A stretch of DNA of 64,000 nt from Rhodothermales bacterium (lineage in GTDB: Bacteria > Bacteroidota > Rhodothermia > Rhodothermales > Bin80). The position numbers and the translations under genes are program-made. The stretch spans positions 3,689,844 to 3,753,843 of the forward strand of contig OZ244857.1 in assembly GCA_965220935.1 (NCBI GenBank), in the 5' to 3' direction. The notes beneath the pieces are model-generated. The model worked only from the letters and a program-made list of their open reading frames with translations. It had not been told where the DNA came from and did not search any database. How positions within the stretch are numbered: the first letter of the stretch is position 1; each line of letters begins with the position of its first letter. Positions 2,954 through 55,242 of this stretch are shown piece after piece.

Positions 2954-5900
2954 TCACTGCACCCGCATCAAGTGTCCAGTGTAGACTGAGGATTGCTGAT
3001 CGTCCAGAGAGGTTGCAATCATCCGATACAGATAGGGCCCCGAGGGCAGATCAAGGTCGGTTAGTTCTAGTTCATGGCGCCATCCTGCGCTCAGTTGTAC
3101 TGCCGGGATGGCCATCACGCGTCGGCCAAGGACATTGAGTACCTCCACCTGCACCTGTGCTGCCCATGGAAGATCAAACACCAGATGCGTGGACCGATCA
3201 AACGGGTTCGGGTAATTGGCATACACCCGAAACTCCTGCGGCACCCCTTGGTTGGCTTCGGTCTGTGTCGGCGATAGGATCTCTATGGTAAACTTCAAAC
3301 TATCTTGCGCCCCATTTTGATCGGTGGCCGTGTAGGTCATCGGGACGGGGGGTGTCACCTCCATGGGGGTTCCATAGATCGTGCGTGATTGCGCATTATA
3401 TCTGAGATTAAACGGAAAATCCAGTAGCGTCAAGGTATATGCAATGGGAGGTACACCGTCTGAGACCTCAGGGAGCACCCATGGCGCAATCGGCTCCCCT
3501 CTTGGATACGACTGATCGGGGATGCTCTTGTTAATAAAGGCCATCTGATAAATCTCCAGACTGAACGTCTGCTCAGTACGCGTTCCTATGCGATCTTGTG
3601 CGGTGTAGGTATAGATTACAGCCTCAGCGACTTCTGAGGTCACCCCGCTTAACGTCCGCGTCTGCGTATCAAAGGTGAGCCCGACCGGTAGCTCAGGCAT
3701 GAGTGTATAGACATACGGTGCAACACCCCCAGTTGCGGCGGGTAGTACGTGATCGGCAAGCGGAATCTGGACGGGGTACCTCTGGTCGCCAACGGTTTCT
3801 GCAAACGTCAAGGACGGAGGCGCTTTGACCTCTATGGTAAAGGTCTGTGTAGCCGACTGGGCATTGGCGTCGGTGACCGTATAGGTAAAGATGGTTGGGG
3901 CCATCACTTCGGTGGGCGTTCCGCTCAGCGTCCGTGCATCAAACTTCAGACCTTTGGGAATCTCTGGGGTGAGGGTATAGCTGTAGGGGCGTGTTCCATA
4001 TCTGGCTTCGGGAAGCTCAAGATCTTTGATGTCTACTCCTACGAGATAGGACTGGTTGGATACCGTCTGGGTAAAGGATAGGTTTGGCACATCGTTGTCC
4101 ACGATGGTGAGCGTAAAGACATATGGGCTTCCGAGATTGTCGCCGGTCAAGGTGATGATGATGGTTTCGTTGGGCTCGTCATCAACATCATCAACGATTG
4201 TGATCAGCAGGTTGTCCGAGATGGTGTAGTCCGCGTCTTGGGTGGCCGTCCCCGAGAGCGTGTAACTCACCGATGGGCGACCGGTCACTTGGACCTGATA
4301 GGTGCCGGCTGTTTCATCAATGCGGGCCGATGCTCTGGTAAATCTAACCTGGGGTTGCGTCGCAGCCCTGGTCACTACATTAGACGGCAGGCTTTCGCCA
4401 ACACGGTTGATTGCACTGACCCGGTAGTGACGGTCAGAATGATGATCCGTGTACGTGGTGCTCGTTTGACGCTCACCAAGTGGGGTCCAAGGCGGCTGCC
4501 CATCCGCGGACCACTGAACCTGATAGCCTGTAATGGCCTCGCCCCCGTTATCGGCCGGCGCTCGCCACGACAGAACAACTGGCAGAGTTGATGTGGCGGT
4601 TAACTCCAGCGGATCACTTGGAATCGCTGGCGTGGCACGATCCACCGTCGTGCCATCATCCACATTGGATACCATCCCGGTTCCTTGTGCGTTGATGGCA
4701 CCGATGCGGTAATGACGTGTCACACCTGGAGATAGTCCACGATGGATGTGGATGGTTTGGGAAGACCCTGAATTGCCCACTAACTCTGTGTAACTGCGGC
4801 CTCCGTCGGTGGAGACCTCAATCCGATAACCGATAATAGCCGCGCCCCCATTGTCGGTTGGAGCGGTCCATGAGACGATCAGTATCGTGCGCCCACTTGG
4901 GGTGACACTTACTGCAGTCGGCGCATCGGGGGCCATGATCGCATCTGTAGTCGCATTCGCTGGAGTAGATGCGCTGGTGCTCTCGCCCACCGAATTACTC
5001 ACATAGACCCGGTAATGGCGCGTTGTAGACGGATTGAGTCCCGTATCGCTGTAGGTGCGATCCGTGCCCGTATGCGCAGGAGAGACATTTGTCCAAGGAG
5101 CATTCCCGTCGGCCGACCACTGAATGCGATAGCCCGTGATGTCTGCGCCCCCGGTGTTGGTGGGCGCGTCCCAGGTCAAATCAATCGCAGTACGCCCGTT
5201 GGCCGTGGCACTGAGATTTCCAGGGGGACCGGGCCTCGTCGCCGTCACCGCAGCGGTGGTGGCATCGTCGGTCGCAGATGCGCTGGTGCTCTCGCCCACC
5301 GAGTTACTGGCATAGACCCGGTAATGCCGCGTTGTAGATGGATCAAGCCCCGTATCCGAGTAGGATCGCAGCGTGCCTGAATGCGCAGGAGAGACATTTG
5401 TCCAAGGAGCATTCCCGTCGGCCGACCACTGAATGCGATAGCTCGTAATACGTGCGCCCCCGTCACTACTCGGGAGATCCCATGTCAAGTTAATCGTGGC
5501 ACGCCCTGACGCGGTGGCGACAAGGTTTTGCGGGGCCCCGGGCCTCACAGCCGCAGCGGTGGTCGCATCATCGGTGTTGGACGGCAAACTCTCTCCCTGC
5601 GCATTGATGGCATACACCCTGTAATGGCGCGTGGCACCGCCCAAAAGTCCCGTATCGCTGTAGGTGGTGCTCGTTGATTCGGTGTCATCCATCACATCCG
5701 CCCAGCCCGCAGTTCCATCCGACGACCACTCAATGTGGTACCCGGTGATGGCCGTGCCCCCAGTGTTGGCTGGCGCCGTCCACGACAGAACAATCGTCGT
5801 TGGCCCATTGGCGGACGCACTCAAACCCGTTGGATCACTGGGAATCGTATTGGTACTGCCATCTACGGTCGTCGCACTCGCTGTAATGGATGCCGTCCCC

Positions 5901-8900
5901 GTATTTGTCGTATTGATTGCGCTCACCCGGTAATGGCGCGTGGACCCTGCACTAAGGCCGCGATCAATAAAGGTAGTGGCTGTACTTTCGGTGTCATCTT
6001 CTAGCTCCGCCCAGTTACTCGTGCCATCGGCCGACCACTCTATCTTGTATCCACTCACCGCACTGCCTCCATTGTTGGACGGCGCCGTCCACGTAAGCAC
6101 AATCAAGGTGCGCCCACTGGCCGTGGCGGTCAAACTGGTTGGATCGCTTGGAACCGTATTGGTGCTGCCATCCACGGTGGTCCCCATCCCGGCGGTAGAC
6201 GCGGCGCCTGTATTCACAGAGTTGATCGCACTGATCTGATAATGCCGCGTGACTCCCGCCGAAAGCCCGCGATGGATATAGGTGGTTTGTGTTGATCGGG
6301 TATTGGTGACCAGAGGGTTGTAATTAGTGCCTCCGTCGGTTGACACATCGATCTTATAGCCGGTAATGGCTTCGCCCCCATTGTCGGCCGGCGCCGTCCA
6401 TGAGACGATCAGTATCGTGCGCCCACTTGGAGTGACACTTACTGCAGTCGGCGCATCAGGCGCCATGGTAGCTTCGGTGGTCGCATTCGCTGAACTTGAC
6501 GCCGTTGCACTCTCGCCCTGTGAGTTGCTGGCATACACCTGATAATCATAGCGCGTGTTTGGACTTCGCCCCGTATGACTGTAGGTCCGCGTCGTGCCCG
6601 TATGCGCAGGATCAACATCACTCCAGCTACTGCCTTGATCAGCCGACCACTGAACGCGGTAGCCCGTGATGTCTGCGCCCCCGGTGTTGGTGGGCGCGTC
6701 CCAGGAGAGAGTAATCGCAGTGCGCCCGTTGGCCGTCGCAGAGAGATTTCCAGGGGGACCAGGTACGGTGTTCATGCCCGCTGTGACGACATTGGACCAG
6801 GTGCCGGTGCCCGCCGAATTGATTGCACCGACCCGGTACTGACGCACGGTGGTGAGCGTTTGACTGGTATGGGCGTAGGTCACCCCATCATCCATAGTGT
6901 CATCTTCAACCTCCGTCCAATTGCTACCCCCGTCCGTGGATTGTTCAATCTCATAGCCCGTGATGACGCTACACTTGTCGCTCACCGCTGGCGCGGTCCA
7001 GGCTAAATTAAAGGTGCTGGTGCCATCACTGGTGGCGGTGAGCCCCGTTGGGGCAGCAGGAACGGCGACGGTGCCCGTGGTCGCATAGGCTTCGTCAGAC
7101 AGGGCACTATCTTCAAATTCATCATCTTCCATATAGACCCGATACCCATAGCAGGTATTGGTATCCAGACCCGTATCGGTGATCATGAGGGTGGAAGCAC
7201 CAACTTGACTATCAAGAGTCCATGAATCTCCGTCATTGTTACTGCGAAATACATAGTAGTTCATCACCGTTCGTCCACTGGGAAGATCTGTTGGGGCAGT
7301 CCAGGCTACATCAATGGATGTTCCCGTATTCTTGGTCGCCGTCACCCCGGTGGGGATCCCCGTCCCGCTACGGGCCACCGCGGTTACCGTGACGACCGCC
7401 GACGGGGGACTCTCAACATCATCCGCATTAACCACTTTGATGCGGTAATAAAACTCCTCCCCTGGCGTGAGCAGACTACTGACATGGCGCTCGGCCGGGG
7501 AATCCGTGTTGTTGGTTGGCTCGGCCAGCACCTCCCAGTTGGTGTTGTCCGTTGACCATTCCAGAATATGCTTTTTGAAGGCCGCACCCCCAAGACTGGT
7601 CGCTGGAGAAGTATCCCATTGAAGCGTAATGGCATGAAAGGCTGTCGTCGTTACTCGTAGACTGGTCGGTGCAGCCGGCACGGTCACCGATGCCTGCAAG
7701 ACACTGGACGCTGCACCCGCGCCACGTGCATTGATCGCGCGAATCCGGTACCAGCGTGTATCCCCCGCCGAGAGCCCTGTATGAGAATAGGTGGTCCCCG
7801 TCTGACTGGCCACCAGCTCGGTAAAGGTCGTTCCGTCTTCAGAGACCTCAATCTTGTAGCCTGTAATCGCGCTCCCCCAGGTCTGCGTCGGTGCGGTCCA
7901 AGACAGTGCAATGCTCGTGGCCGCCGGGGTGGAGGTGAGACTAGTCGGCGCGGCGGGCGCGCCAAAGGTCAGCGAAACGGGGTTGGATAGGTCTTTCTGA
8001 GTTGCTACGGTGGTCCAAAGGTTCACACGATATCCGTAGGTCATGCCAGTGGTCAAGCCATCACTATCGGTATATGTCAATGTAGTGGAGGACAATGAAG
8101 TGGAAAGTGCTCGCCAGCTGTCCCCGCCATCACTGGTCCGAAATATCTGATAACGACTGATCCCCTCACCCATTGGTAGATCCGTTGGGGCCGTCCACGA
8201 AACCGTCACCTCCGTTGCCGATGTCTGCGATGCGGTCACCCCAGTAGGAACGCCCGTTGAAATGAATGCCCCTGCAGTCACGCTTCGGACCGCAGACGCA
8301 GGGCCCGCCCCCGCCGCATTGACCGCACGTGCCCGGTAGTAAAACGACTCACCGGGTGTGAGTAAACTGCTGTAGTGATAAAACTCTCTGGCAGTAGGAG
8401 GTAATGTGACTAACTCCTTCCATGTGGAATTATCGGTAGACCATTCAATGGTGTAATTCGTAATCGCTGAGCTCCCTATACTGCTTGGCACATCCCATAT
8501 TAAAAAGGCTTGATGATACCGAATAGCGGAGGCACCAAAACTTTGTGGCGCGCCGGGCGGGGTCCCGATGGTAATGCTCTGAACTGCGGTCGGTTGGCCT
8601 GTGCCCCGTGCATTGATGGCACGGACCCGGTAATGGCGCACATCGCTGGCCGAGAGTCCCGTGTGCGAATACGTAGTCCCCGTCTGACTGGCGACCAGCT
8701 CGGTAAAGGTGTCGCCATCGGTAGAGACCTCAATCTGATAGCCGGTGACGGCGCTTCCCCAGGTCTGAGCGGGTGCACTCCAAGACAGATCAATACCCAT
8801 GCGATTTGATGCCGACACCGCTGTAAACGAGGTCGGCGCACTGGGCGCACCAACGGTCAGCGAATCGGGCGGCGAAAGATCGTACTCAAAGAACGCATCG

Positions 8901-10588
8901 GTTTGAACGGCCACACGATAGCCGTAGGTATTCCCAACCGTCAACCCGTCATCATCAACATACGAGGATGCTGTGTTGCTGATACTGCCGTCAAGTTGCT
9001 CCCAAAGCTCTCCGCTATTGGCCGTCCGATACACCTGATAGAAGGTAATTCCATCTGTAGTACCCTCCGCATCCGGCACATCCGTCGGGGCCGTCCACGA
9101 CACTGTGACTTCACCTGCCGCCGTCTGCGATGCCCGCACATCAGTGGGCACACCCGCACCACTGGCACGAGAAATCGCCATCGCACTAACAGACGTAGAA
9201 GGCGGGCTCGCCCCCGCAGAATTGACTGCACGCACCCGGTAGTAAAACGTCTGGCCTACGGTCAGCAAACTGCTAAAATGTTCATAGTATCCAGTATTGC
9301 CTGCAGCGGGCTGGTCCACAACCTCCCAGTTGGTATCATCGGTAGACCATTCGATGATATGGCTGGTAATCGGCGGACTGATCGTCGGTACCCTATCCCA
9401 ATTCAGAACGATATTATGAAGCCGCGAGGCACCGGCTGTTAATCCCGTTGGCGCGGCGGGGGGCATGGTGGTTGGGGCCGCGGTCGTGAACGCATCCGAC
9501 CACGCGCCAAAGCCCATCGAATTCTTTGCCCGCACCTGGTACTGACGGCTCGTCGCAATCGTCTGACCCGTATGCGCATACATCACCGCGTCATCGCCCG
9601 TGTCGGCTTCGACATCACTCCACGTATCGCTGCTACTGGCGCGCTCCTGGATCTGATAGCCCGTGATCGCGCTGCACTTGTCAGATGCCGGCGCTGTCCA
9701 ACTCAAATTGAAGGTCGTCCCCGTGCCTGTGGCCGTCAAGCCCGTTGGGGCCGCCGGAGCCGTGACCGTCCCCGTCGTCGCATACGCCGCGTCGGAGAGG
9801 TGGTAATAGGTATAAACCGAACTATCCACAAGCCGGACCCGAAACCCATAGCAGGTGTTCTCGGCCAGGCCCGTGAAGGTTTGTGGGTTTTGGGAAGATA
9901 AAGCGTAGCTACGATATGAATCTCCTTGGTCGTTCGTTTGAAGTACTTGGTATTCAATAACCCCAGTCACTTCGGACGGGGCCGTCCATGAGACCTGAAT
10001 GGAGGTGCCACTTTGCTTGGTTGCGGTGACGCCCGTAGCAATGGCCGTATTATCGCGCACGATCGCGGTCACACTGCTCACATTGGACGGCCCGCTGACC
10101 TCATCATTGGTGTTGGCCACCTTCACACGGTAGTAAAAGGTAGTGCTCGGCGTGAGCCGGTCGCTGACATCTCTAAACTCTGTATTACGGATATTCCCAC
10201 TCACCCTCCCGATCACCGACCAATTGGTGTTGTCGGACGACCGCTCAACGATGAACTCCTTGAAGGTGCTGTTGTTGAGACGTGATTGCGTATACCGATC
10301 CCACATAATTTCGTGTATAAGAAACGCCTCCACCGTGACGCTCACATTTAATGGCGGATCCGGGGCCGCGCTCTGGGGAATGGCGGCTCGCGAAGATGCA
10401 TCTCCATCACGCACATCCTCGCTTGGCTCTACATGCCAGTCCATGACACGGATCCTTTCAGGCGGAGTCTCACTTAGATCACCATGCCCGTCAGTGGACG
10501 CTAATCCATGCTCCTCCAACTGGAGGGACTCATCTAAAAAATGGGGGGGGGGGGGGGGTAGATTCGGAATCCCTGATGTTTGAACCAT
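2954..10588 (-). CDS. giant T9SS-sorted surface adhesin (FN3 repeats, Calx-beta, cadherin-like Ig units, Por C-terminal domain)
   Basis: 2544-aa ORF with 20 or more ~95-100 aa FN3-like units ('L.W..P...GG..ITGY.I.WS.DG..W......T.Y.HTGL...T.HYRV.A.N..G'). One Calx-beta-like unit ('YTLSGTATQDADYT...DDVDDEPNETIIITL'). About 5 'LPEA.GG..PY.YTL.P.LP.GL.F...RTLSGTP' units. C-terminus 'YANYPNPFDRSTHLVFDLPWAAQVQVEVLNVLGRRV...YLYRM'. No signal peptide in this frame. Confidence 0.9.
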   Translation of the reverse strand: MVQTSGIPNLPPPPPHFLDESLQLEEHGLASTDGHGDLSETPPERIRVMDWHVEPSEDVRDGDASSRAAIPQSAAPDPPLNVSVTVEAFLIHEIMWDRYTQSRLNNSTFKEFIVERSSDNTNWSVIGRVSGNIRNTEFRDVSDRLTPSTTFYYRVKVANTNDEVSGPSNVSSVTAIVRDNTAIATGVTATKQSGTSIQVSWTAPSEVTGVIEYQVLQTNDQGDSYRSYALSSQNPQTFTGLAENTCYGFRVRLVDSSVYTYYHLSDAAYATTGTVTAPAAPTGLTATGTGTTFNLSWTAPASDKCSAITGYQIQERASSSDTWSDVEADTGDDAVMYAHTGQTIATSRQYQVRAKNSMGFGAWSDAFTTAAPTTMPPAAPTGLTAGASRLHNIVLNWDRVPTISPPITSHIIEWSTDDTNWEVVDQPAAGNTGYYEHFSSLLTVGQTFYYRVRAVNSAGASPPSTSVSAMAISRASGAGVPTDVRASQTAAGEVTVSWTAPTDVPDAEGTTDGITFYQVYRTANSGELWEQLDGSISNTASSYVDDDGLTVGNTYGYRVAVQTDAFFEYDLSPPDSLTVGAPSAPTSFTAVSASNRMGIDLSWSAPAQTWGSAVTGYQIEVSTDGDTFTELVASQTGTTYSHTGLSASDVRHYRVRAINARGTGQPTAVQSITIGTPPGAPQSFGASAIRYHQAFLIWDVPSSIGSSAITNYTIEWSTDNSTWKELVTLPPTAREFYHYSSLLTPGESFYYRARAVNAAGAGPASAVRSVTAGAFISTGVPTGVTASQTSATEVTVSWTAPTDLPMGEGISRYQIFRTSDGGDSWRALSTSLSSTTLTYTDSDGLTTGMTYGYRVNLWTTVATQKDLSNPVSLTFGAPAAPTSLTSTPAATSIALSWTAPTQTWGSAITGYKIEVSEDGTTFTELVASQTGTTYSHTGLSAGDTRWYRIRAINARGAGAASSVLQASVTVPAAPTSLRVTTTAFHAITLQWDTSPATSLGGAAFKKHILEWSTDNTNWEVLAEPTNNTDSPAERHVSSLLTPGEEFYYRIKVVNADDVESPPSAVVTVTAVARSGTGIPTGVTATKNTGTSIDVAWTAPTDLPSGRTVMNYYVFRSNNDGDSWTLDSQVGASTLMITDTGLDTNTCYGYRVYMEDDEFEDSALSDEAYATTGTVAVPAAPTGLTATSDGTSTFNLAWTAPAVSDKCSVITGYEIEQSTDGGSNWTEVEDDTMDDGVTYAHTSQTLTTVRQYRVGAINSAGTGTWSNVVTAGMNTVPGPPGNLSATANGRTAITLSWDAPTNTGGADITGYRVQWSADQGSSWSDVDPAHTGTTRTYSHTGRSPNTRYDYQVYASNSQGESATASSSANATTEATMAPDAPTAVSVTPSGRTILIVSWTAPADNGGEAITGYKIDVSTDGGTNYNPLVTNTRSTQTTYIHRGLSAGVTRHYQISAINSVNTGAASTAGMGTTVDGSTNTVPSDPTSLTATASGRTLIVLTWTAPSNNGGSAVSGYKIEWSADGTSNWAELEDDTESTATTFIDRGLSAGSTRHYRVSAINTTNTGTASITASATTVDGSTNTIPSDPTGLSASANGPTTIVLSWTAPANTGGTAITGYHIEWSSDGTAGWADVMDDTESTSTTYSDTGLLGGATRHYRVYAINAQGESLPSNTDDATTAAAVRPGAPQNLVATASGRATINLTWDLPSSDGGARITSYRIQWSADGNAPWTNVSPAHSGTLRSYSDTGLDPSTTRHYRVYASNSVGESTSASATDDATTAAVTATRPGPPGNLSATANGRTAIDLTWDAPTNTGGADITGYRIQWSADGNAPWTNVSPAHTGTDRTYSDTGLNPSTTRHYRVYVSNSVGESTSASTPANATTDAIMAPDAPTAVSVTPSGRTILIVSWTAPTDNGGAAIIGYRIEVSTDGGRSYTELVGNSGSSQTIHIHRGLSPGVTRHYRIGAINAQGTGMVSNVDDGTTVDRATPAIPSDPLELTATSTLPVVLSWRAPADNGGEAITGYQVQWSADGQPPWTPLGERQTSTTYTDHHSDRHYRVSAINRVGESLPSNVVTRAATQPQVRFTRASARIDETAGTYQVQVTGRPSVSYTLSGTATQDADYTISDNLLITIVDDVDDEPNETIIITLTGDNLGSPYVFTLTIVDNDVPNLSFTQTVSNQSYLVGVDIKDLELPEARYGTRPYSYTLTPEIPKGLKFDARTLSGTPTEVMAPTIFTYTVTDANAQSATQTFTIEVKAPPSLTFAETVGDQRYPVQIPLADHVLPAATGGVAPYVYTLMPELPVGLTFDTQTRTLSGVTSEVAEAVIYTYTAQDRIGTRTEQTFSLEIYQMAFINKSIPDQSYPRGEPIAPWVLPEVSDGVPPIAYTLTLLDFPFNLRYNAQSRTIYGTPMEVTPPVPMTYTATDQNGAQDSLKFTIEILSPTQTEANQGVPQEFRVYANYPNPFDRSTHLVFDLPWAAQVQVEVLNVLGRRVMAIPAVQLSAGWRHELELTDLDLPSGPYLYRMIATSLDDQQSSVYTGHLMRVQ

Positions 10589-10688
10589 CCTCAGCGAATG
10601 CGCTCAATGGGGAAGTAGGAATTTCTGAGTTCGATAAACATAATTGGACACCCGCAAGGAGCAGTAATAAAATGACAGATCGGTGCAT
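10530..10688 (-). CDS. out-of-frame Sec signal-peptide leader ORF of the adhesin
   Basis: Hand translation from ATG at 10688-10686 gives MHRSVILLLLLAGVQLCLSNSEIPTSPLSAFAEDGSNIRDSESTPPPPPFFR-stop. It enters the C16 tract one nucleotide out of phase with the 2544-aa frame. Confidence 0.6.
   Translation of the reverse strand: MHRSVILLLLLAGVQLCLSNSEIPTSPLSAFAEDGSNIRDSESTPPPPPFFR
10543..10558 (-). repeat. homopolymeric C16 tract (G16 on + strand) between signal-peptide leader and adhesin body
   Basis: Counted directly: 8 g at 10543-10550 plus 8 g at 10551-10558. Encodes the PPPPP run. Flanked on the coding strand by ATCTA and ATTTTTT. Confidence 0.95.
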
Positions 10689-10827
10689 CAATATCATCGG
10701 CAAAATTTAAAATGAAGGGTATAGACTTGATCAATCCTTTTTAGCATTTCTGATATTATCTTCACATTGTGCAGACCATACCCACCGAACTCAGATCCTA
10801 AGATCAGAAACGATTGATAAAAAATTT

Positions 10828-10837
10828 GGGGGGGGGG
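10828..10837 (-). repeat. homopolymeric C10 tract (G10 on +) about 140 nt upstream of the adhesin leader ATG
   Basis: Counted directly (3 g + 7 g). The coding-strand context is gaaaaag-C10-aaatttttt, which resembles the Cn-A-TTTTTT context of the two intragenic tracts. Confidence 0.9.
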
Positions 10838-12220
10838 CTTTTTCATCCGCAGTGGCAGAAAAAATTCCTCCAGAGAAATGTCAAAAATATACGCATTGGA
10901 ACGCTGTAAGTTTACGCCAAAGATACGAAAAATCAGATACATAAATGACCGAAGCATCCTATTCGTGCCCGTCCGAAAAATACCGTTAGTGATTTATTGA
11001 ACTCCGATGGGGGCATATGTTGGACAGAGGTCCGCTTTACTCTGCGCAAATTGCAGTCAGTAGCCGGGGGAATTTCACACTTGGGCCCTCACAGATCCGT
11101 ACCTAAATCTCTCAATTGATACGGATCTTCCTATACAGATGTTCAGCGACAACTAGAATTTTCGTTGGGCTTGTTTCAATGTGAGGGAAATATTTGATGA
11201 TTTCATTGTGACTGGCAGGGTGTAAGTTCAGATCTGTTTCAGATTTCAGTCATACTGGTCACTTTGAATAGAATGATTCATATACACATTTATTGACGTA
11301 TATTGGTATCATGATGGGCATTGTGTAAGGCTATATGCCCATATATCTACCAGCGCCAAGTGGAAGTTTCAACTAAGATTGAAACAATCCATTTTCGTTT
11401 TGGAGGGGCAAGCAACGAAGAGAAGTTGCGCGCGAATAATCATTTGATATTTGTCCCTCTGATCATATGAATCATCAACAGAGCTACTATATCAGCAAGA
11501 ACCAACTCGGTAAGCATACTTTTGGGTAGGCTATGGATGGTCGGTAAAGTTGCCCTGTGAGTTTTACGACTGCCTCTGCTGTGCAACTTCAAGCGGTAAC
11601 TTGGCAAGTTCATTTCAAGAATCACACAATGATATCAAATCGGTACATGGCCGCAGTTGTGATGGTTGGGCCTAAAAGAGAGTATCAATTGTAGAACAGA
11701 AAAGGCTAAAGCCCCTATCTTTATAGGCAGAATCACGCTCTGAGGCACTTCATTATTAGTTACGCTTACGGTGCAAATTTGACCCTGTTTTGGGCATCTG
11801 GCGCAAAGATCAAACGATCACCCCAGCAATCTTTTGACTCTCCCATGATGACTGCGGAAGATTCTGCACGATCTGGGCGGCGTGCATTTCGGCAAATGAT
11901 GGCGGTTTTTGAGGCTAAAAGCCGGGAATACCTTGCCACATTCGTCCTAATTTCGTTTGATCGGAACATAGATGATTAGGGTGGAGATCCATAAATACCC
12001 AAGATCACCATCGCACGCACCGAATGTGAATGTTATCATTTGAAATCGATCTGAGTGTCTCACATGAAATGCCCACGGGTGATCAAACTGTGAATGCAAT
12101 GAAATAACCCCATTAAAGTGCCAGACTATTTGGTGCGGGTTATTTTCCCAAAGTGTAACAATTTTCGCATTCTAACTGGGAAGTGTGCGTGTACCACTGA
12201 AAACATAAACACTCAACCGA

Positions 12221-12538
12221 ATGAATATCTTGTTTAATCAAACCAAACGACATTGGGTTATCCTGTTCATCCTATTCTGCCCATTCCTTTCAGATGCAAG
12301 TGGTGTTGGAGGCGTTCGAGTGGCCACCTCTACGGTGTCTAAAATTGTTGGATTACTCACTGGAGATCTGGCGACGGCGGCCTTTCTGTTGATTATTGTA
12401 CTCGGCGGTCTGGCATGGTGGATTACACGGTCTGGCCGCGCAGGTGAAATTCTTGGTCGGACCGTCATGGGAGCTGTGATTATTTTTGGAGCCGCACAGA
12501 TCAGTGAGTTCTTCTCCTTTCAGGGAGCATTGATTTAA
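12221..12538 (+). CDS. trbC: conjugative pilin TrbC/VirB2-like
   Basis: 105 aa with a signal-like N-terminus and two hydrophobic helices ('AAFLLIIVLGGLAWW', 'VMGAVIIFGAAQI'). First gene of the trb block. Stop overlaps the next start (TAATG). Confidence 0.7.
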   Translation: MNILFNQTKRHWVILFILFCPFLSDASGVGGVRVATSTVSKIVGLLTGDLATAAFLLIIVLGGLAWWITRSGRAGEILGRTVMGAVIIFGAAQISEFFSFQGALI

Positions 12539-12858
12539 TGGATCGCCCCCACGATGCTTTGCAAACAGCTCCCGTTTACTCATCGCTCCAACGAAGACCA
12601 ACAATGGTCGGATTACCACAGGATGCCTTCATGATGCTGATGTTGATCATAGTTGCGCTGGGGATCGCTTCACGATTGGATCCGAAAGTTCTCGCAGGTT
12701 GTGTTGTAGCCTATATGGTTCTGCTCCCATTGCTTCGAAGGGTTTTTGAAAAAGAGCCATTTTTTATGACGATCGTTCCCAAGTCATTCAGGTATAGGGC
12801 TCACTACTTGCGACAGGAAAAAGAAATCACTGCCCTATGGCGCGATCGCGTTAAATAA
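12538..12858 (+). CDS. trbD: TrbD/VirB3-like
   Basis: 106 aa with 'LQRRPTMVGLPQDAFMMLMLIIVALGI' (VirB3 pattern). Lies between the pilin and VirB4. Confidence 0.7.
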   Translation: MDRPHDALQTAPVYSSLQRRPTMVGLPQDAFMMLMLIIVALGIASRLDPKVLAGCVVAYMVLLPLLRRVFEKEPFFMTIVPKSFRYRAHYLRQEKEITALWRDRVK

Positions 12859-15294
12859 TTGCGAATGGATCCGTTGACCTTCGGTCTTGGCACTGTGGCT
12901 GGCGCTGGTGCACTCTGGATCGTCCAGCGCTTGCAACAATTTAGAACCCCAGCCGAGGGATTAGCAGATCTGTTGGGTTGGGCCTTTATGATTGATGAAG
13001 GTATGATTCTAATGAAGGATGGATCATTTCTCAGTGGAGTGGAGATTTATCCACCCGATCTGGAAGCATCATCTAATGCTGATATAAGCAGCGTCACAGA
13101 TACCGTCCATGATATGCTTACGCTTCTTGGTGAGGGTTATGCCGTAGAAGTCAATGTACATAGAAGGTTTTCTACACAATATCCGATTGAAACAAAGCAC
13201 CACTTTCCCACCGACTCGTTGTGTGCGATGGAAGAGGAGCGCCACGAACAATTTCGTGAAAGTAGCCGCCATTACTCAATGCGTCGTACTGTACTGTTTA
13301 CCTATACCCCATTACGAGAGTTGTGGTCAAAATGGGAGCGGCCAATTATCAGTGGCACTGAAAGTGGGTTTGATTACAAAGAGATTTTCTCAGAATACAA
13401 ACGCACCTTAACAGAGGTACATGGACTGTTAAAAAGCAGGTTTGACGTGTCTTCGCTCAGTAGTAGTGACCTATTAACGGAATGCCATTCTACACTCACT
13501 GGAAAGGTTGAGCCCGTTCCCTATTCTCACCATTGTCACCTGAGCCGCTCGTTGGCATCAGATGATTTTCAGACAGGTTTCTATCCCAAGATGGGCGACC
13601 AACATATCTTTGTGATAACGATCTCTTCGCTCGGCTTTGAAACCAGAGCGGCAGGATGTGATTTTTTGAATCGGATGGAAGGGCAATGGAGATGGCACAT
13701 GCGGTTTGTGACTATGAGCCGCCATCAAGCCGAGCGGCGTATCAAACGGCTTCAAACCAGCTGGTTTCACCAACGTCAAGGTCTGCGTAAACTCATTGCG
13801 CCAAGTGAAGATGGATTTGAGGATCAGGATGCAATGAACATGCAACAAGAGGCGGCCTCAGCGCAGGCAGAATCTAGTCGTGGTCGTGTACGGTTTGGAT
13901 ACTTCACCAATGCTCTGGTTCTGCGAGATCCTGTCATGAATCGTGGACTAGCTCAAAGCCAGATATTGATTCAGGAACTTCGTGATCAGGGGTATACCTG
14001 TGCGATGGAAACGATCAATGCGACGGATGCTTTTATCGGCACGCTGCCTGGTCACGGATATGCAAACCTGCGCCGTCCGCTATTATCAAGTCGTAATATT
14101 GCACATCTATTTCCAGTGTCCGCTCCATGGAAAGGCGTCCCCACATGCCCGAGCCCGCAGTTTCCAGCCAATAGTCCTGCATTAGCATGCGCCCGAACCT
14201 CTGGAGGTATCCCGTTTATGATTAACCTACACCAAGGAGATGTAGGCCATTCGCTCGTCATCGGTGCGACAGGATCAGGAAAGAGTGTCCTCGTAGGATG
14301 GTTGGCACTCAATTTCTTACGTTATGACAATAGCCGAGTACATATTTTTGATATAGGCCATTCACATCAAGTTCCCTGTTGGGCGGCTGGCGGAACTCAA
14401 TATTCATTTGGCGAGATCAACACAAACGCGCTTCAACCGCTGCGCCATATTGATCAGGATAGTGAGCGCTTATGGGTGCTTAGCTGGTTGGAAATCATCT
14501 ATGATCTCGCAGGTGAATTTCCCGATGCGGAAGGTCAATTAGCACTTGCGGAAACCCTTGATTTATTGAGTGAATCTCCGCAGGAGTATCGGACGATGTC
14601 CGCATTACACATGCTGCTTCCACAAGCATTAAAAAATGCCATTGCTCAGTACACCGAAGATGGCCCTTACGGCCAATTGTTTGACGGAGATAAAGCGACA
14701 GCACTCTCAGAGCGTATGCAAGTGTATGAACTTGGGAATATTTTAGATCAGGGTGACCGTGTCATGGTTCCATTGCTATTGTCGTTATTCCGAAATATTG
14801 AACGAACATTGGACAATACCCCAACCCTCATTGTGATAGAAGAAGCATGGGCTGCGCTACTGAGATCACAATTTTCTGACCGGATCAAGGCTTGGCTCCT
14901 GACACTGAGAAAACGTAATGCAGCGGTTGTGCTGGTGGCTCATTCGCCAGCGCAGATCACCTCACTGCCGAATGCTGCGCTGATCACAGAATCATGTCCT
15001 ACCAAAATCATTCTTCCCAACTCAGGGGCAAGGACGCAGGAGGGTATTGCAATGTACAAGGCTTTGGATCTAAGCCCACGAGCCATTGATATTATTGCCT
15101 CAGCAACGCCCAAGCGGGAGTATTTCTATAAGCGGCCTGAAGGCGGTCGCTTGTTTGAATTGAATTTAGGGCCAGTTGCACGCACTTTGCTGATGCCGCT
15201 TCCAGGGAAGAATACTCAAGCATCGCGCGGTTGTATTCAAGAAGCGATTCGAAATCATGGACAACAATTCTTAGACTATTTAGATGACGCATGA
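12859..15294 (+). CDS. trbE: TrbE/VirB4 conjugation ATPase
   Basis: 811 aa with Walker A 'GATGSGKSVL' and Walker B-like 'LIVIEEAW'. Size and position are typical of VirB4. Confidence 0.9.
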   Translation: MRMDPLTFGLGTVAGAGALWIVQRLQQFRTPAEGLADLLGWAFMIDEGMILMKDGSFLSGVEIYPPDLEASSNADISSVTDTVHDMLTLLGEGYAVEVNVHRRFSTQYPIETKHHFPTDSLCAMEEERHEQFRESSRHYSMRRTVLFTYTPLRELWSKWERPIISGTESGFDYKEIFSEYKRTLTEVHGLLKSRFDVSSLSSSDLLTECHSTLTGKVEPVPYSHHCHLSRSLASDDFQTGFYPKMGDQHIFVITISSLGFETRAAGCDFLNRMEGQWRWHMRFVTMSRHQAERRIKRLQTSWFHQRQGLRKLIAPSEDGFEDQDAMNMQQEAASAQAESSRGRVRFGYFTNALVLRDPVMNRGLAQSQILIQELRDQGYTCAMETINATDAFIGTLPGHGYANLRRPLLSSRNIAHLFPVSAPWKGVPTCPSPQFPANSPALACARTSGGIPFMINLHQGDVGHSLVIGATGSGKSVLVGWLALNFLRYDNSRVHIFDIGHSHQVPCWAAGGTQYSFGEINTNALQPLRHIDQDSERLWVLSWLEIIYDLAGEFPDAEGQLALAETLDLLSESPQEYRTMSALHMLLPQALKNAIAQYTEDGPYGQLFDGDKATALSERMQVYELGNILDQGDRVMVPLLLSLFRNIERTLDNTPTLIVIEEAWAALLRSQFSDRIKAWLLTLRKRNAAVVLVAHSPAQITSLPNAALITESCPTKIILPNSGARTQEGIAMYKALDLSPRAIDIIASATPKREYFYKRPEGGRLFELNLGPVARTLLMPLPGKNTQASRGCIQEAIRNHGQQFLDYLDDA

Positions 15295-16019
15295 AACGAC
15301 TTTTGATTCTCTCTTTATTGTTCACATCCACGGCGATCAGCCGTGCACAAATTCCTGTTGTAGATGTCGCAAATTTGGCTGAAACAGTGGCATCTTTGGC
15401 CGAGCTTCGCCATCAAGTTCGAATCATGCTCAAAGATATCTCTCTGTCCACGGAGATCAAGGAGAATACGCAATCGCATCTAAACATCTATAAGCGAGCC
15501 CTAACCAAGCGGGGCATTATCCCGACGGAATCGCTTGGTCATTATTTAGACAAAATTGACCAGGCACATCAATCTGTAGGGGGCGTGCTATGGGAAAACC
15601 CTAAGATCATTCGTGAGGTTTTTCCAATGTATGTCAATCCAACAGATCCATTGGCTGATCGCCAAAACTCATTAGAAAAAACGATGTCAACGCTTGAAGG
15701 AATTTTTTCATCACTCAAAATTCATGTCACATCTATGCATCAGAGCAATAGAGAGATTGAGCATATCAAAGGAGAAATCGTCCAAGCAAAAGAGCCCCAA
15801 CAGATAAGAGATGTTCAGGCGAATTTACAGATTGTTCATGCGCGAGAACTGCTACTCACAAGACAGGCAATAACAACACTTGCAAATTTAGAGGCCATTC
15901 AAGCCGCAGATGAAGTGAGTCAAAGGGCTCAGAATCAAATGCGCTATATGGAATTTGTAGGGAATTCTCAGTGGGTGGGTAATCCGAATCGTTATGATGT
16001 AGAGCGGTTTCTGAGGTGA
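15291..16019 (+). CDS. trbJ: TrbJ (VirB5-like)
   Basis: 242 aa with a signal peptide, then 'QIPVVDVANLAETVASLAELRHQV', the typical TrbJ N-terminus. ATGA overlap with trbE. Confidence 0.8.
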   Translation: MKRLLILSLLFTSTAISRAQIPVVDVANLAETVASLAELRHQVRIMLKDISLSTEIKENTQSHLNIYKRALTKRGIIPTESLGHYLDKIDQAHQSVGGVLWENPKIIREVFPMYVNPTDPLADRQNSLEKTMSTLEGIFSSLKIHVTSMHQSNREIEHIKGEIVQAKEPQQIRDVQANLQIVHARELLLTRQAITTLANLEAIQAADEVSQRAQNQMRYMEFVGNSQWVGNPNRYDVERFLR

Positions 16020-16069
16020 TCAGCTACTTCATAAGCAGAATCTCTGAATCAATATTCATGTAAAGTCAT

Positions 16070-16972
16070 ATGCAACAGGCCTTACAGAATTGTGCACCGA
16101 CCATGTTTTTCGACTGTGCACAGGAAGTCTTTCGACTCACAACAGAGGGATGGTTAACCCGGTCACTGGATGCTGCGCAGACACTTTTTCTGAGTTTGGC
16201 GGTCTTGGAAATTGTGGTTACTGGGTATATGATCTGGTCTGGGCGCAGAAAACAGGGCGAGGATCTCATCAGTCAATTTGCATTCAAGATTGGCCTTTTG
16301 GCGTTTGTGTTAGGTCTTTTGTCCACCTATCATCGCTGGCTGCCAATGATTGCACAGGGCTTTGGTGAAACGGCCATCTATATTGGCGGGAGTAGTGTCA
16401 CCCACCTATCACCAACGCATTTGTTAAATGTGGGCTTAAGCATGCTGTTGAGTGTCATGCAGTCGGTTGGGCTAACTTCTGGATTCATTACTTCGCTGGC
16501 ACTTATCCCTGCACTGATTATGTTACTCTGTTTTGTTGCGCTTGCAGCGCATCTACTGGTAACGATGATAGAGAGTTATGTGGTCGTGACGGGGGGATTA
16601 TTCTTTGTTGGATTTATGGCATTTCGGGGAACGGCTCCCCTTGGTGAGGGATACCTAAAGTATGCGATCTACATCGGGATTAAGTTATTTTTCCTCATTT
16701 TGATTTCAGGAGTTGCGGCGTCTATAGGGGATGATATGGTTGAAATGTTACAATCATATCATCATTTATGGCTTGCATCGTTTGAGCAGATTTTTTCCAA
16801 TAGTTCTGATGGCGCGGCAGGATCGGTTTCATCCAGAATGGGATTTCTGTGGTCTATGACGTCTGTTTCAATCCTGTTGGCTGGTTTGGGGCTTCATATG
16901 CCAGGTAGGATCGCATCTCAGCTCAGCCAGGGCATCACCATTAATTTCAAGCGAACGTTACAAAATTTATAG
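16070..16972 (+). CDS. trbL: TrbL/VirB6 polytopic membrane protein
   Basis: 300 aa with multiple TM helices, positioned after trbJ. Confidence 0.75.
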   Translation: MQQALQNCAPTMFFDCAQEVFRLTTEGWLTRSLDAAQTLFLSLAVLEIVVTGYMIWSGRRKQGEDLISQFAFKIGLLAFVLGLLSTYHRWLPMIAQGFGETAIYIGGSSVTHLSPTHLLNVGLSMLLSVMQSVGLTSGFITSLALIPALIMLLCFVALAAHLLVTMIESYVVVTGGLFFVGFMAFRGTAPLGEGYLKYAIYIGIKLFFLILISGVAASIGDDMVEMLQSYHHLWLASFEQIFSNSSDGAAGSVSSRMGFLWSMTSVSILLAGLGLHMPGRIASQLSQGITINFKRTLQNL

Positions 16973-17637
16973 TGATGGGCAAAGCAGGGCATCCATATCT
17001 TGATGGGCGATATGCATTTGAGCGACTATTTGGAGATCTTGCTAAAGGCAAGCGTTCATGGCAATCTGTGGCACTATTAGCACTACTTGTGAATCTTGTC
17101 CTTTCGGTGGGATATGTCCATTTGGCATCTCAACATAAAGTCGTTCCATATGTCGTTGAGCTTGACGCACTTGGTGAAATGCGTGCGGCGGGGATGCTTG
17201 CTATTGAAGACATCCCGGAATCTGCAATTACGGCCGTCCTTCGCAAATTTGTTCATAACCTGCGAACCGTCCCCACAGACACTCGTCTTCTAAATGTTCG
17301 CTTGCAGGAAGCCCGAGCGTATGTTCATGGGCGGGCCGCAAACACACTAATGGCAGATTTGGGGCGAGATCGGGAGGCTATGGAGCGAATGCTTGCACGG
17401 GGCGATACGCGCTATGTTGTTGAGATAAGTAGTGTATTGAAGATTCCTGGTGAGGGAATCCTTTATCGGGTATCTTGGAGAGAATCTGCACGCATTGGTC
17501 AAGATGAACGTATGTCTGCATTTGAAGGTCATTTTCAGGTTCATATTGAGACTCCTGAGGATCAAGAAACCATGAGTACAAACCCTTTGGGTATCTATGT
17601 GATGGATTATACCCTGACACAAGTCGGAGAAATCTAA
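16972..17637 (+). CDS. trbF: TrbF/VirB8-like
   Basis: 221 aa with 'PYLDGRYAFERLFGDLAKGKRSWQ...KVVPYVVELDALGE', matching the TrbF pattern. Confidence 0.8.
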   Translation: MMGKAGHPYLDGRYAFERLFGDLAKGKRSWQSVALLALLVNLVLSVGYVHLASQHKVVPYVVELDALGEMRAAGMLAIEDIPESAITAVLRKFVHNLRTVPTDTRLLNVRLQEARAYVHGRAANTLMADLGRDREAMERMLARGDTRYVVEISSVLKIPGEGILYRVSWRESARIGQDERMSAFEGHFQVHIETPEDQETMSTNPLGIYVMDYTLTQVGEI

Positions 17638-18013: not shown

Positions 18014-21000
18014 ATGAATCTCCTCCCCATGCGTGTGATTTGGAATGATAAATTCGTCCTATCCTTCGTAGTTGTAACGCTTGTTCTCTTGGCACTTACT
18101 CCTCTATCCCTCCAAGGTTATGGAAATGATGGACCACCGGTGTCATTGAGTAGTAAAGATGATCGGTACAATCCCGAGATTTATAGCACGGGTAAAGTTC
18201 CTGCCATTGAATTTGGCGTAGCATCTGAAACAGTTCCAGAAGATGTTGGCACGGCGGACGTTGTCTTAAGCGTAAGTGAGACTGTGGCAACGGCGTTCAC
18301 GTTGAATTATAGTCTTAGTGGTAGTGCAAGCCGAAATTCTGACTATACCAATGCTGGGAGTCTTTCTGTAGCTGCAGGTGCTACTTCTTTGATGATTCCT
18401 CTGGTGATCACCGATGACAATGCAGGTGAAGGCGATGAAACCATCATCATCACCCTAACAACTGGCACGGGCTACACTTTAGGAACAACGATTGTTCATA
18501 CTCTGACGATTAGTGACAACGAACCCGTGATCTCTTTTGGTGGTGATCCTATACAATTTATCTCCGAAGCACTTGAGGATCCACCAGTGGGCATCAGTGC
18601 GGATGGTAACGTAAATGATGATCTCACATTGAATTACTCGGTAAGTGGCACAGCAACTGCGGGGTCGGATTATACGATTACAGGATCAGGAACCGTCCTT
18701 TTGGATATTAGCGAGGGCAGTTCAACCGAAATTCCTATCATGATCATTGATGACCTGAGCGCTGAAGAGACAGAAACGATCATCCTTACTCTGACATCTG
18801 GCGTAGGATATAGCGTTGGATCCCCCAATGAGATTACCTTAAACATTGAAGATAATGAGCGAGATGCTGGGTTTAGATTTTTTACTGGTGAATCTTCGGA
18901 GGGCGATGGGACTGTCAGAGTGGAGATACTTTTCAATGAGTTAACTGATCAAGATTTTACAGTGAACTACAAATTAAGTGGTACAGCAACCGAAGGCACA
19001 GACTACACGATTGCCAATTCAGGGACTGTTTCAGTGAGCGAAAACTCGGAGGTCATAGATATTCCTGTGATGATCATCGACGATAATGTGGGCGGCGAGG
19101 GGGACGAAACTATCATCTTTACTCTGGAATTAGGTGGAGGATACCGTATAGACGATTTCAATAAAGAATACACATTAACCGTTAGTGACAATGAGCCTGA
19201 TGCCAATTTTGGTGGGGCTGAAAGTATAGTTCTTGAGAATGCGGGGACCTTTGAATTGGGGGTCTTTCTCACAAAAGTTGCGACTGAAGACCTCACATTG
19301 AATTATAGTGTAAGTGGAACAGCGAGCGCATCTAGCGACTATAGTATTGCTAGCTCGGGAACTGTTTTTATTGATGTGAGTGAACATGACGAAGAGGCAA
19401 CGATTTCTATTGCAATCACAAATGATAATATCGCTGAGGGGGACGAAACCATTATCTTGACATTTGACAGTGGCCCAGGATATGGAATAGGACAGTTCGG
19501 TGTACACACTCTTACCATTGAAGATGATGAACAATCCTTATCGCTGAGTCGCACAATTCCAGATCAGACGTATAGACGGAATGTGGAGATCGCTGATCTG
19601 GTTTTGCCCGAGGCTTCTGGAGGGACCGCTCCCTACACATACACACTAACGCCGACGACACTACCTACTGGGCTGAGCTATAACGTAGCGACCCGAACCC
19701 TCAGTGGCACACCGACGGCTGTATTCTCTCAGACCGAATTCACCTATACGGTTACAGATGCGGCAACGCCTGCGCTGACGATTACTGCTACCTTTGACAT
19801 TACGGTCTCGGATCCTTCAACCATAACGTTAACTCCAAGTACGGTTTCGGATCAGAATTATACGCGAGGGGTGGCGATTGCCAACTTAGTTCTTCCCCAA
19901 GCCTCGGGAGGGACCGCACCCTACACGTACACACTAACGCCGACGACACTACCCACTGGGCTGAGCTATAACGTAGCGACCCGAACCCTTAGTGGCATAC
20001 CGACGGCTGTATTCTCTCAGGCCGAGTTCACCTATACGGTTACAGATGCGGCAACTCCTGCGCTGACAAGCACGCTGACCTTCAACATTACCGTCACAGA
20101 ACCGTCTCAGACAGGCTTAATGTTGTCACCAAGCACGGTCTCGGATCAGAGTTATACGCGAGGGGTGGCGATTGCCAACTTAGTTCTTCCCGAAGCTTCA
20201 GGAGGAACAGCTCCTTATACCTATACACTCACGCCGACCACATTACCGAGCGGGCTCAGCTTTAATGGGTCAACTCGGACTCTTAGTGGGACTCCAACGG
20301 CCGTATTCTCTCAGGCCGAGTTCACCTACACGGCCACAGATGCGGCAACGCCTGCACTGACGAGCACACTGACGTTTGATATTACGGTCACAGATCCGCC
20401 TCAGGCAGGCTTAACCTTTTCATCAGGCCCAGTTCCAGATCAAACGTACATCCAAGGTGTGATCATCTCTGATTTGACACTTCCTGAAGCTCAAGGAGGC
20501 GTGGCTCCCTACACCTATACAGTGAACCCCACCCTTCCCAGCGGACTGAACTTTAACGCAGTAACACGAATCATCAGTGGCACACCAACGGCATCATCAG
20601 TTTCAAGTGTCTTCACGTATACTGCGGAGGATGCAGACGGCACCACGGTAACGCAAACATTCAACATTGAAGTTGTCCTGCCAGCAGATTTGACCTTTGC
20701 CGATATGGTCGGTGCTCAGACTTATCCCGTCAAGCTTGCCATCGCTGATCTGATACTACCTGAAGCGATGGGCGGCATTGCGCCTTATGCCTATTCATTA
20801 TCGCCTGATTTACCCTCTGGGCTCTCCTTTGATGGCGACACGAGAACTCTCAGCGGGACACCATTGGAGGTGATGACTTCAACAAATTATACTTATGTCG
20901 CCGAGGATAACTCTGGAATCCGTACCCAACAAAGCTTCAGCATATCGGTGTATGGGATTTCGTTTAGTGAGACGATTCAAAACCAGACCTATCCTCGAGA

Positions 21001-21544
21001 TGCGCCGATTACTACACTCACTCTACCCGAGGTAAGTGGGGGAGTCAATCCCGTAGACTATACGCTCAACTTGTTATCGCTTCCCTCAGACCTTCAGTAT
21101 GATGCATTCACCCGAACCATTAGCGGTGTGCCTAGAGTGATTGCACCGCCAGTGGACTTGATCTACAAAGCTACAGATGCAAATGGAGCACAGGATAGTT
21201 TAGCATTTACGGTTGAGGTCATCTCCCCAGTCAGTACAGAAGCGATAGATGGGATGCCACAGAAATTTATCGTTCACACAAATTATCCTAATCCGTTTTT
21301 ACGGTCTACCACTCTGGTTTTTGATCTTCCGTGGTCAGCGCAAGTGCAAGTGGAGGTCATGGACATCACGGGTCGGCGTGTGCACAACCAGACACCTGTC
21401 ATTATGACAGCAGGTTGGAGACAAGAGATTGCACTTGATGATCTAACACTACCGTCGGGCTCCTATCTTTATCGGATGGTAGTGACTTCAATAGAAAATC
21501 ATAGAACGGCCACTCATTCTGCCCACTTTGTGAGTATCCAATGA
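18014..21544 (+). CDS. T9SS-sorted adhesin (5 Calx-beta units, ~8 cadherin-like Ig units, Por C-terminal domain)
   Basis: 1176 aa with an N-terminal TM/signal segment. Five 'LNYS(L/V)SGTA...SDYT...I.DD...EGDETII.TL' units. Repeated '[38 protein letters not shown]'. C-terminus '[33 protein letters not shown]...YLYRM'. Confidence 0.9.
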   Translation: [1176 protein letters not shown]

Positions 21545-26145: not shown

Positions 26146-26148
26146 TGA

Positions 26149-53715: not shown

Positions 53716-53925
53716 AGTTGTTGGTCTTTTTTCTTTAGTACTTGGACTTAATCTCCACGTACATCCTGGTGTAGAAAGGAAGGTTCCCTTTCGGGGGTTG
53801 GTATGTATTAGTTTCTGGTTACATTTTGTTATAGATTTAGACCAATCGTCATGGAGAAAGAGTCTTTTAGCAATGGCGACGGTATATCAATCTGGTGTCC
53901 GCATGCTAGGCAAAAGCCGTAATGC

Positions 53926-55022: not shown

Positions 55023-55242
55023 AATAAAATGAAAGTTTGGTTACCTCAAAAAATAACACTTCTGAGAGAACCTTCCTTTCTATTATATCTTATACTCATT
55101 GAGATAGTTGGCTTCTCTTGCACTCTGTGATAGCCAGCAGTGTATGACACGGATCCCATTTTCTCGCTGGCAGCACCTACCACCTGGCCACCTTTTGTAG
55201 GCCCTATCTTGACCATCCACTTTCCATTCGCACAAAATACAG

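Follow-up and report, generated by a model that had tools for sequence, protein, structure and literature searches.

Is a run of cytosines that stands between an export signal and the protein to be exported a genuine switch, or is it a slip in an assembly? This question is raised by a giant gene on the minus strand of a 64,000-nucleotide stretch of the Rhodothermales bacterium contig OZ244857.1 (hereafter the window; coordinates are positions in the whole window). In this gene, here called locus 1, a Sec-type leader and a 2544-aa open reading frame (ORF) with fn3 repeats enter the same poly-C tract in different frames. We think it likely that the run is a real, evolutionarily maintained and hypermutable tract, and that the gene is a contingency locus switched ON and OFF stochastically by slipped-strand mispairing. 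The evidence for this comprises the anatomy of the locus, including a sorting domain and the apparent lack of an alternative signal peptide, the non-random placement of such tracts, their recurrence in related genomes, and length polymorphism with both ON and OFF forms.

The poly-C tract between leader and fn3 body

The leader of locus 1 (10559-10688, minus strand) consists of the putative Sec-type signal peptide MHRSVILLLLLAGVQLCLS and an acidic linker that extends as far as the tract. Its n-region is basic (H, R), its hydrophobic core comprises 15 residues, and its maximal Kyte-Doolittle (KD) average over 12 residues is 2.80. A lipoprotein signal was rejected after direct reading of the sequence, as no lipobox precedes Cys17. 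The leader ORF starts with the ATG at 10688, reads into the C16 tract (10543-10558, minus strand) and stops at a TGA (10532-10530), its translation being MHRSVILLLLLAGVQLCLSNSEIPTSPLSAFAEDGSNIRDSESTPPPPPFFR with the end STPPPPPFFR before the stop. The 2544-aa ORF (10588..2954) passes through the same C16 as PPPPPH, offset by one nucleotide from the leader frame. Thus, the tract, the leader start and the stop four codons on (PFFR-TGA) were all reproduced as given in the initial annotation, and so was its statement that C15 or C18 would fuse the two frames: in an in-silico series of tract lengths, C15 resulted in a 2577-aa fusion and C18 in a 2578-aa fusion, and with C14, C16 and C17 translation terminated 3-4 codons past the tract. 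The C16 state leaves a leader ORF of 52 aa. The conserved 3´ flank of the tract, ATTTTTTAGATGA (10530-10542, minus strand), contains the stops TAG and TGA in both wrong frames, and the T6 run just 3´ of the tract is a possible secondary slippage site.

The body downstream of the tract (2954-10542, minus strand) comprises 2528 codons and a stop, and matches to Pfam revealed 19 fn3 stretches and He_PIG. The protein is probably an adhesin with fn3/Ig repeats. A type-A C-terminal sorting domain of the type IX secretion system (T9SS) is located at 3017-3214 (minus strand); its TIGR04183 match, covering residues 114-179 of the last 199 aa, is marginal with 23.3 bits against a cutoff of 23. The N-terminus that starts with the ATG at 10588 reaches a maximal KD average (12 residues) of only 0.06, and therefore the body alone appears to have no export signal and the putative signal peptide is present only in the fused form; in terms of N-terminal hydrophobicity, no alternative signal peptide was found for the body. 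The position 10588 had been taken as an annotated start lacking a signal peptide. The lack of a signal peptide was borne out, but this position is merely the first ATG of the frame and the public gene call starts at 10688. The tract thus uncouples a Sec-type leader from a T9SS cargo body apparently without a signal peptide of its own, as had been proposed. Look-ups of the exact products (the 2544-aa ORF and leader ORFs of 52 aa and 57 aa) returned no public record and no gene call in the C16 state. When the first 700 aa of the fused form were compared with known proteins, only generic fn3 matches with at most 42% identity were returned, from an index that apparently holds no proteins longer than about 1200 aa.

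In the mechanism that we propose, slipped-strand mispairing at replication would alter the length of the C run. Lengths that are multiples of three (C15, C18) would join leader and body, allowing export by the Sec system, then secretion by the T9SS and display. At all other lengths, translation would end at the built-in stops 3-4 codons past the tract, and the body would be left without an export signal. Loci of this kind would form a family that has at least two members here and further ones in related Rhodothermales-like genomes, recognisable by the junction C(n)-(A/GA)-TTTTT(T).

The second member in the window, locus 2, is located on the plus strand. Its leader ORF (MLILNILISFSFIGHG...SLPST; 37761-37992, ATG at 37761) has a maximal KD average (12 residues) of 2.49 and reads into a C13 tract (37993-38005) flanked by ATCTA and ATTTTTT, for which C14 or C11 is needed for fusion. 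The body (38006-43528) is a 1831-aa ORF, open for 1840 codons after the tract, with 15 fn3 stretches and a Por_Secre_tail match in Pfam. Its sorting domain at about 43268-43471 scores 28.6 bits with TIGR04183. Both loci thus carry the C-terminal sorting domain (TIGR04183 / PF18962) of T9SS cargo, marginally so at locus 1. Other cargo with such a domain is encoded at 18014-21544 of the window and in a sister genome described below. The former is a third large T9SS protein (plus strand, 1176 aa, TIGR04183 with 27.4 bits) and has no 5´ homopolymer tract.

The placement of the tracts is not random. The 64 kb of the window (48.6% G+C) contain only three G/C runs longer than 6 nucleotides, with 10, 13 and 16 nucleotides, and all three are located at the 5´ ends of the two T9SS fn3 genes. 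By chance, about 0.08 runs of at least 10 nucleotides and about 2e-5 runs of at least 16 nucleotides are expected. Repeats of a length at which hypermutability is expected (G/C homopolymers of at least about 8 nucleotides) are present at both genes: C16 in the ORF and C10 upstream of it at locus 1, and C13 at locus 2. The only stretch shared by the 1-kb 5´ regions of the two loci comprises 28 nucleotides, ATCTA-C(n)-ATTTTTT. The frame over ATTTTTT differs between them (CAT TTT TTA versus ATT TTT TCT), and thus the DNA motif and not the peptide is conserved. With Rfam, no RNA elements were found at locus 1 or locus 2; the only matches were group II intron fragments elsewhere.

The third long run, C10 (10828-10837, minus strand), is located about 140 nucleotides upstream of the leader ATG of locus 1 with the flanks GAAAAAG-C10-AAATTTTTT, and it is C13 in the sister strain, a difference of 3 nucleotides. 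Its flanks resemble the junction motif. It lies inside an ORF of 87/88 aa (10694-10957, minus strand) that is reported by gene callers but is dubious, and which stops 5 nucleotides before the leader ATG. The run could be a promoter-region tract or part of an upstream ORF with translational coupling, or it could be what is left of an earlier leader junction. A scan for sigma-70-type promoters around the leader and the upstream C10 detected 5 sites against 4.3 in shuffled sequences and none on the coding strand, so the tract could not be placed in a promoter spacer.

Tract length and reading frame across records and genomes

The initial annotation considered locus 1 to be currently OFF, with a productive form requiring a change in tract length. 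A second record of the same contig does not agree with this. In the ENA metagenome contig ERZ25072152:ctg52282_12x_l (1.67 Mb), to which the window was assigned by its neighbouring proteins, the tract is C15 and in frame, and the public gene call is one 2577-aa product from the position equivalent to 10688. Over 31,069 compared nucleotides, window and ENA record show no mismatch and a single gap, which is the locus 1 tract; at locus 2 the ENA record also has C13, and the gene is called there as two products, one of 93 aa and one of 1831 aa. The frame toggle is thus present in natural sequences, C15 giving the 2577-aa gene and C16 early termination. All tract lengths reported here were taken from assembly consensus. 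The contig name suggests a linear contig of about 12x coverage from a metaMDBG-type long-read assembler. In the metaMDBG paper, the errors fixed by polishing were 'mostly homopolymers', and homopolymers are the main residual error of long-read (HiFi) data (PMC11392814). A single base in a C15/16 run is therefore weak evidence for an ON or OFF state when coverage is low and the data are prone to homopolymer errors. The call 'currently OFF' for the window is not reliable, since the same contig is ON in the ENA record; the C16 of the window may be a true allele rather than a consensus miscall.

An alternative explanation would be that the gene is always intact, that the OFF calls are mostly homopolymer miscalls, the C16 of the window included, and that the tract is a CCC-coded poly-proline linker. 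The C15 record with its 2577-aa gene, the sole difference in 31,069 nucleotides, the coverage of only about 12x (judged from the contig name) and the known residual error of HiFi data all speak for it.

The layout of leader, C tract, (A/GA)TTTTT(T) and fn3 body was found, besides locus 1, in the second gene of the window and at nine loci in three other genomes. A motif scan of species-representative genomes gave 29 matches, 26 of them scattered singletons, which is about the number expected by chance, and three in one genome. On the Rhodothermales metagenome-assembled genome (MAG) chromosome OZ241742.1, three paralogous fn3 genes (M1-M3) each carry ATCTA-C9-ATTTTTTAAATGAG and a short hydrophobic leader ORF (for example MSVISLFLLFAITSGSGSDSLRMDSSDLPPPIF, followed by a stop). 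Their bodies start with ...HFLNE(T/P)VHSAVASTD and resemble the HFLDESLQLEEHGLASTD of the window. All three are out of frame and each would need C10. Leader and N-terminal segments, concatenated for a protein search, led to two further proteins, N1 and N2, in the NCBI MAG GCA_026709065.1 (gene calls P0137/P0138), in which leader and body are fused without a break across a C10 tract (MPITFFLFAFLIPNAGSDSLLVEIPPPHFLNEP...) and the sequence downstream is the same. One of them is also present on an independent ENA scaffold. In the loci of both MAGs, the 3´ flank of the tract is kept as ATTTTTTAAATGAG. The NCBI genome is labelled only 'Bacteroidetes bacterium' and the ENA scaffold ROBB21-1_SAMN13943199; from this sample label and the genes rich in fn3, restriction-modification (RM) and mobile-element functions we guess, with sponge symbionts in mind, that the lineage may be host-associated (e.g. 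with a sponge).

Four loci were found in the sister genome ERZ25070844:ctg10149_1281x_c (4.15 Mb, circular, about 1281x). The orthologue of locus 1, R-W1, has the junction ATCTAA-C16-ATTTTTTAGAT and would need C17 or C14 to turn from OFF to ON; its leader is 98.8% identical to that of locus 1. In R2, the orthologue of locus 2, the tract is short and interrupted (C3-T-C6, then T5), and the frame is off by one base. R1 (AAAAT-C10-GATTTTTTCTTCAC; gene call P0001) is ON, its signal peptide MFMTRVALLLTMIAGAPSGFAHA reading through into SPPPIFSSHSSADVQLSASEADG, which resembles the fused locus 2 of the window. R3 has the same leader and flanks as R1, but its tract is C12 and the gene is OFF, with a 1345-aa body that is intact through the sorting domain. 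Between genomes, the fn3 DNA is only about 64-70% identical, and the tracts longer than 6 nucleotides are still uninterrupted C runs. Since fused genes exist in several records (the 2577-aa call, P0001 and P0137/P0138), leader and body are one gene. A motif scan of JGI metagenomes gave 27 matches, and in nine the run was pure C8-C14. The layout of leader and fn3 body was not seen in any of them; they were AT-rich or non-coding, and we regard them as unrelated.

For a census of ON and OFF states we used 12 entries, counting locus 1 once per record (window and 12x ENA record) and locus 2 of window and ENA record as one entry. Four of the 12 are ON and need no change: locus 1 in the ENA record (C15), R1, N1 and N2 (C10 each). 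The remaining eight are OFF. The C16 of locus 1 in the window would need -1 or +2 nucleotides for fusion, and +1 or -2 would be required in R-W1 (A+C16), locus 2 (C13), R2 (C3-T-C6), R3 (C12) and M1, M2 and M3 (C9 each). About one third ON is expected for an unconstrained length. A comparison between strains, which the initial annotation had suggested as a check, showed that the spacer of locus 1 is 15, 16 or 17 nucleotides long in the three records. Locus 2 is C13 in the window and the interrupted C3-T-C6 in the sister strain, and R1 and R3 differ by 2 nucleotides (C10 versus C12) between identical flanks in a single assembly of about 1281x. The tracts are thus polymorphic in length among related genomes and paralogues, with ON and OFF alleles, as read from assemblies.

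Several features of the census weigh against a contingency locus. Of the eight OFF loci, seven would be restored by the addition of one nucleotide (one-sided p=0.035, or 0.11 with the three MAG copies taken as one). Such a bias fits systematic under-calling by long reads, and also a biological deletion bias. The three MAG paralogues have C9 and need C10, which is the length found in the NCBI relative, a genome that looks short-read. The assemblies behind all OFF calls appear to be long-read ones, in which homopolymers are the main residual error (PMC11392814). Furthermore, the equal lengths in diverged paralogues (9, 9, 9 and 10, 10) argue against very fast switching at C9-C10, suggesting that tracts of this size either do not switch very fast or are selected to stay ON; the C12-C17 tracts are better candidates for active switching.

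The +1 bias and the repeated C9 would also be expected if all genes were intact and miscalled. This explanation is weakened most by R1 and R3, which differ by 2 nucleotides with identical flanks in one deep assembly. It is weakened further by R2, in which the frame is lost even though the tract is short, interrupted and easy to call (C3-T-C6, T5). In addition, the upstream tract of locus 1 differs by 3 nucleotides between strains, and if all tracts had been under-called by one nucleotide, R1 and the C15 record would in truth be OFF; thus, not all loci can be ON. To our knowledge, C10-C17 runs are intrinsically unstable in every bacterium in which they have been studied, and some switching is thus expected even if the call in the window is wrong. 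We regard a constitutively intact, miscalled gene as unlikely. A homopolymer error, named at the outset as a reason to abandon the contingency reading, may apply to the state call of the window, but the tract itself and its variability stay. Of the claim of a slipped-strand contingency locus, the general part is supported by recurrence, length polymorphism and the presence of ON and OFF forms, and the part concerning the current state is not. The switching would occur at high frequency within populations.

With eight of 12 loci out of frame, it might also be possible that leader and body are normally in different frames and that slippage of the RNA polymerase or the ribosome on the C run and T6 (T TTT TTA) yields a fixed low ratio of full-length protein. 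Long homopolymers cause transcriptional slippage, the T6 after the tract is conserved and part of a slippery-type heptamer, and stops follow directly in the leader frame. However, a conserved out-of-frame arrangement, as expected for a programmed frameshift, was not found: the C15 record, R1, N1 and N2 are in frame with the same motif, and the shift that would be needed varies in direction and size among the loci. No stimulatory structure came to light, although no search was aimed at one. As the motif is shared by the in-frame members, we regard programmed recoding as very unlikely to be the main mechanism. Slippage is more likely a source of leakiness, and the RNA polymerase probably makes OFF alleles leaky by slipping on C runs.

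Finally, the frameshifted copies could be pseudogenes of a redundant adhesin family, with the tract being merely the point of breakage. Some members do carry further lesions: in one MAG copy (L016) an in-frame TGG is changed to TAG (stop at 7609, reoriented), another (L022) is truncated after 197 aa (stop at 7128, reoriented), and the bodies of R1 and R2 have internal frame breaks (L061, about 9132-9303; L060 reverse complement, about 7297-7375). The tract of R2 is moreover interrupted and shortened. The lesions could be real decay or repeat misassembly, and they add to the points against switching in that part of the family may be decaying instead. One of the breaks in the sister genome is a 1-nucleotide deletion, GGG to GG, at a repeat joint and not at a long homopolymer, and was therefore uninformative when the breaks were examined as a gauge of assembly errors. 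Against decay, the two bodies in the window are open for 2528 and 1840 codons past the tracts and have intact sorting domains, and the leaders show no damage, with a conservation of 98-99% between strains. In R3, the tract is in the OFF state, but the 1345 aa of the body behind it are undamaged as far as the sorting domain and including it. Moreover, the break is always located at the same, engineered-looking site. We consider decay the least probable of the explanations, and hardly credible. A slipped-strand contingency locus remains the explanation that we prefer.

The variable segment behind the tract and the genomic neighbourhood

In both orthologous adhesin genes, the identity of about 98-99% between the window and the 1281x strain stops exactly at the poly-C/T6 motif. 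At locus 1, identity resumes at 97.9% after about 700 nucleotides (window 9803-10531, minus strand; L067, 951-1668). The segment in between is unalignable or about 67% identical at the nucleotide level, and it encodes the N-terminal ~240 aa of the mature protein directly after the tract. At locus 2, identity resumes after about 150 nucleotides and only at about 77-90% (window 38006 to ~38160, plus strand; L060 reverse complement, ~5815-5960). Since identity ends at the tract in both comparisons, the tract marks the 5´ edge of an N-terminal segment that is hypervariable and has been replaced. This pattern suggests recombination at or near the shared motif together with diversifying selection on the tip of the adhesin, resulting in a mosaic with the tract as a fixed breakpoint. 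No donor sequence for the variable segment was found among the loci compared.

One could go further and imagine the junction C(n)-(A/GA)-TTTTT(T) as the fixed 5´ breakpoint of a cassette exchange, which swaps the ~240-aa tip behind a constant module of promoter and signal peptide and is possibly nucleated by the G15-16 of the opposite strand. In the pilE/pilS antigenic variation of Neisseria, an upstream sequence forming a G-quadruplex (G4) is used. The two systems share a G-rich element beside a segment replaced by recombination, homology here breaking at the G15-16/C tract. In contrast to pilE/pilS, no silent donor cassettes were identified here, and the family members with C9-C10 are too short for a G4 with three tetrads. 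We offer cassette exchange as a speculative idea that is quite unlikely to hold in this form. If it were true, the T9SS adhesins of this family, in an uncultured Rhodothermales-like lineage rich in RM and mobile elements, would undergo antigenic (specificity) variation in addition to phase variation.

Both adhesin genes are located among genes for a P-type type IV secretion system and conjugation (12221-17637, 34010-35493 and 47459-49255), which encode TrbC, VirB3, VirB4/TrbE, TrbL, a VirB11-like ATPase, an S26 (TraF-like) peptidase and VirD4/TraG. The region may be an integrative conjugative element with the adhesins as part of it. A two-component system is located at 35490-36865. RM genes are dense (24928-27708 and 30978-33700), among them those for a BbrUII-like enzyme and for hsdM/hsdS of type I. 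In each of two genomes of about 4 Mb, the hsdM cluster comprises 5-7 variants with at least 90% identity, so that there may be several type I systems, or systems that shuffle. At 22084-22212, 28678-29207 and 29481-30713, group II intron fragments (Rfam RF01999, RF00029) and a gene for a TnpB of the IS200/IS605 type were found. A 1.3-kb repeat (53786-55091) has a counterpart with 98.3% identity shortly beyond the edge of the window (L066, 19484-20789).

Comparison with known phase-variable loci

Homopolymer contingency loci are textbook knowledge in host-adapted pathogens such as Neisseria, Campylobacter, Helicobacter, Haemophilus and Bordetella. The closest parallels to the loci described here are the Neisseria pilC1/pilC2 genes with a 5´ poly-G and the autotransporter gene nalP with a poly-C tract, in which a G/C homopolymer of about 9-20 nucleotides lies in the ORF of a surface or secreted protein. 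The genic tract of pilC is G9-20 and that of nalP C9-13, and phase-variable G/C tracts range from 9 to 21 nucleotides (PMC5953494); a change in length shifts the frame between ON and OFF, and paralogues switch independently. The family described here differs in being found in a Rhodothermales-like host of the Fibrobacteres-Chlorobi-Bacteroidetes (FCB) group that uses Sec and T9SS export, and in being known from sequence alone. Furthermore, its tract is located in the linker after the signal peptide and not within the signal peptide.

A combination of an upstream and a 5´ coding tract in an adhesin gene, as with the C10 and C15/16 of locus 1, is also known from Helicobacter pylori sabA, which has a promoter poly-T tract and a 5´ coding CT repeat (PMC2715451). 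The repeat types differ from those of locus 1, and the upstream C10/C13 of locus 1 is not obviously located in a core promoter. Homopolymers close to the 5´ end have been described as devices for reversible inactivation (Orsi et al. 2010, PMC2831843). The 5´ poly(A) of Listeria monocytogenes inlA is similar to the tract of locus 1 in that a surface-protein gene is reversibly truncated after a few codons, but it is a short poly(A) and not a long poly(C) (PMC2831843). The same study found A/T tracts to be generally enriched and G/C tracts not. In the literature searched, there was no report of such loci for T9SS cargo or for Rhodothermota/Bacteroidota. Thus, the mechanism itself is already known, and the lineage and the secretion system are without a prior report in the searched literature.

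Tracts of this type are located where long-read metagenome assemblies are least reliable, and depending on the record the gene is annotated as one 2577-aa protein or would be split. The annotation hinges on one uncertain base, and therefore pseudogene counts and predictions of the surface proteome for such MAGs depend on that base. If confirmed, the loci would represent a multi-gene family of giant fn3 adhesins, each with an independent poly-C switch that separates the export signal from a hypervariable tip. The bet-hedging design that the pathogens use for surface display would then also be at work in uncultured FCB bacteria, be they environmental or host-associated.

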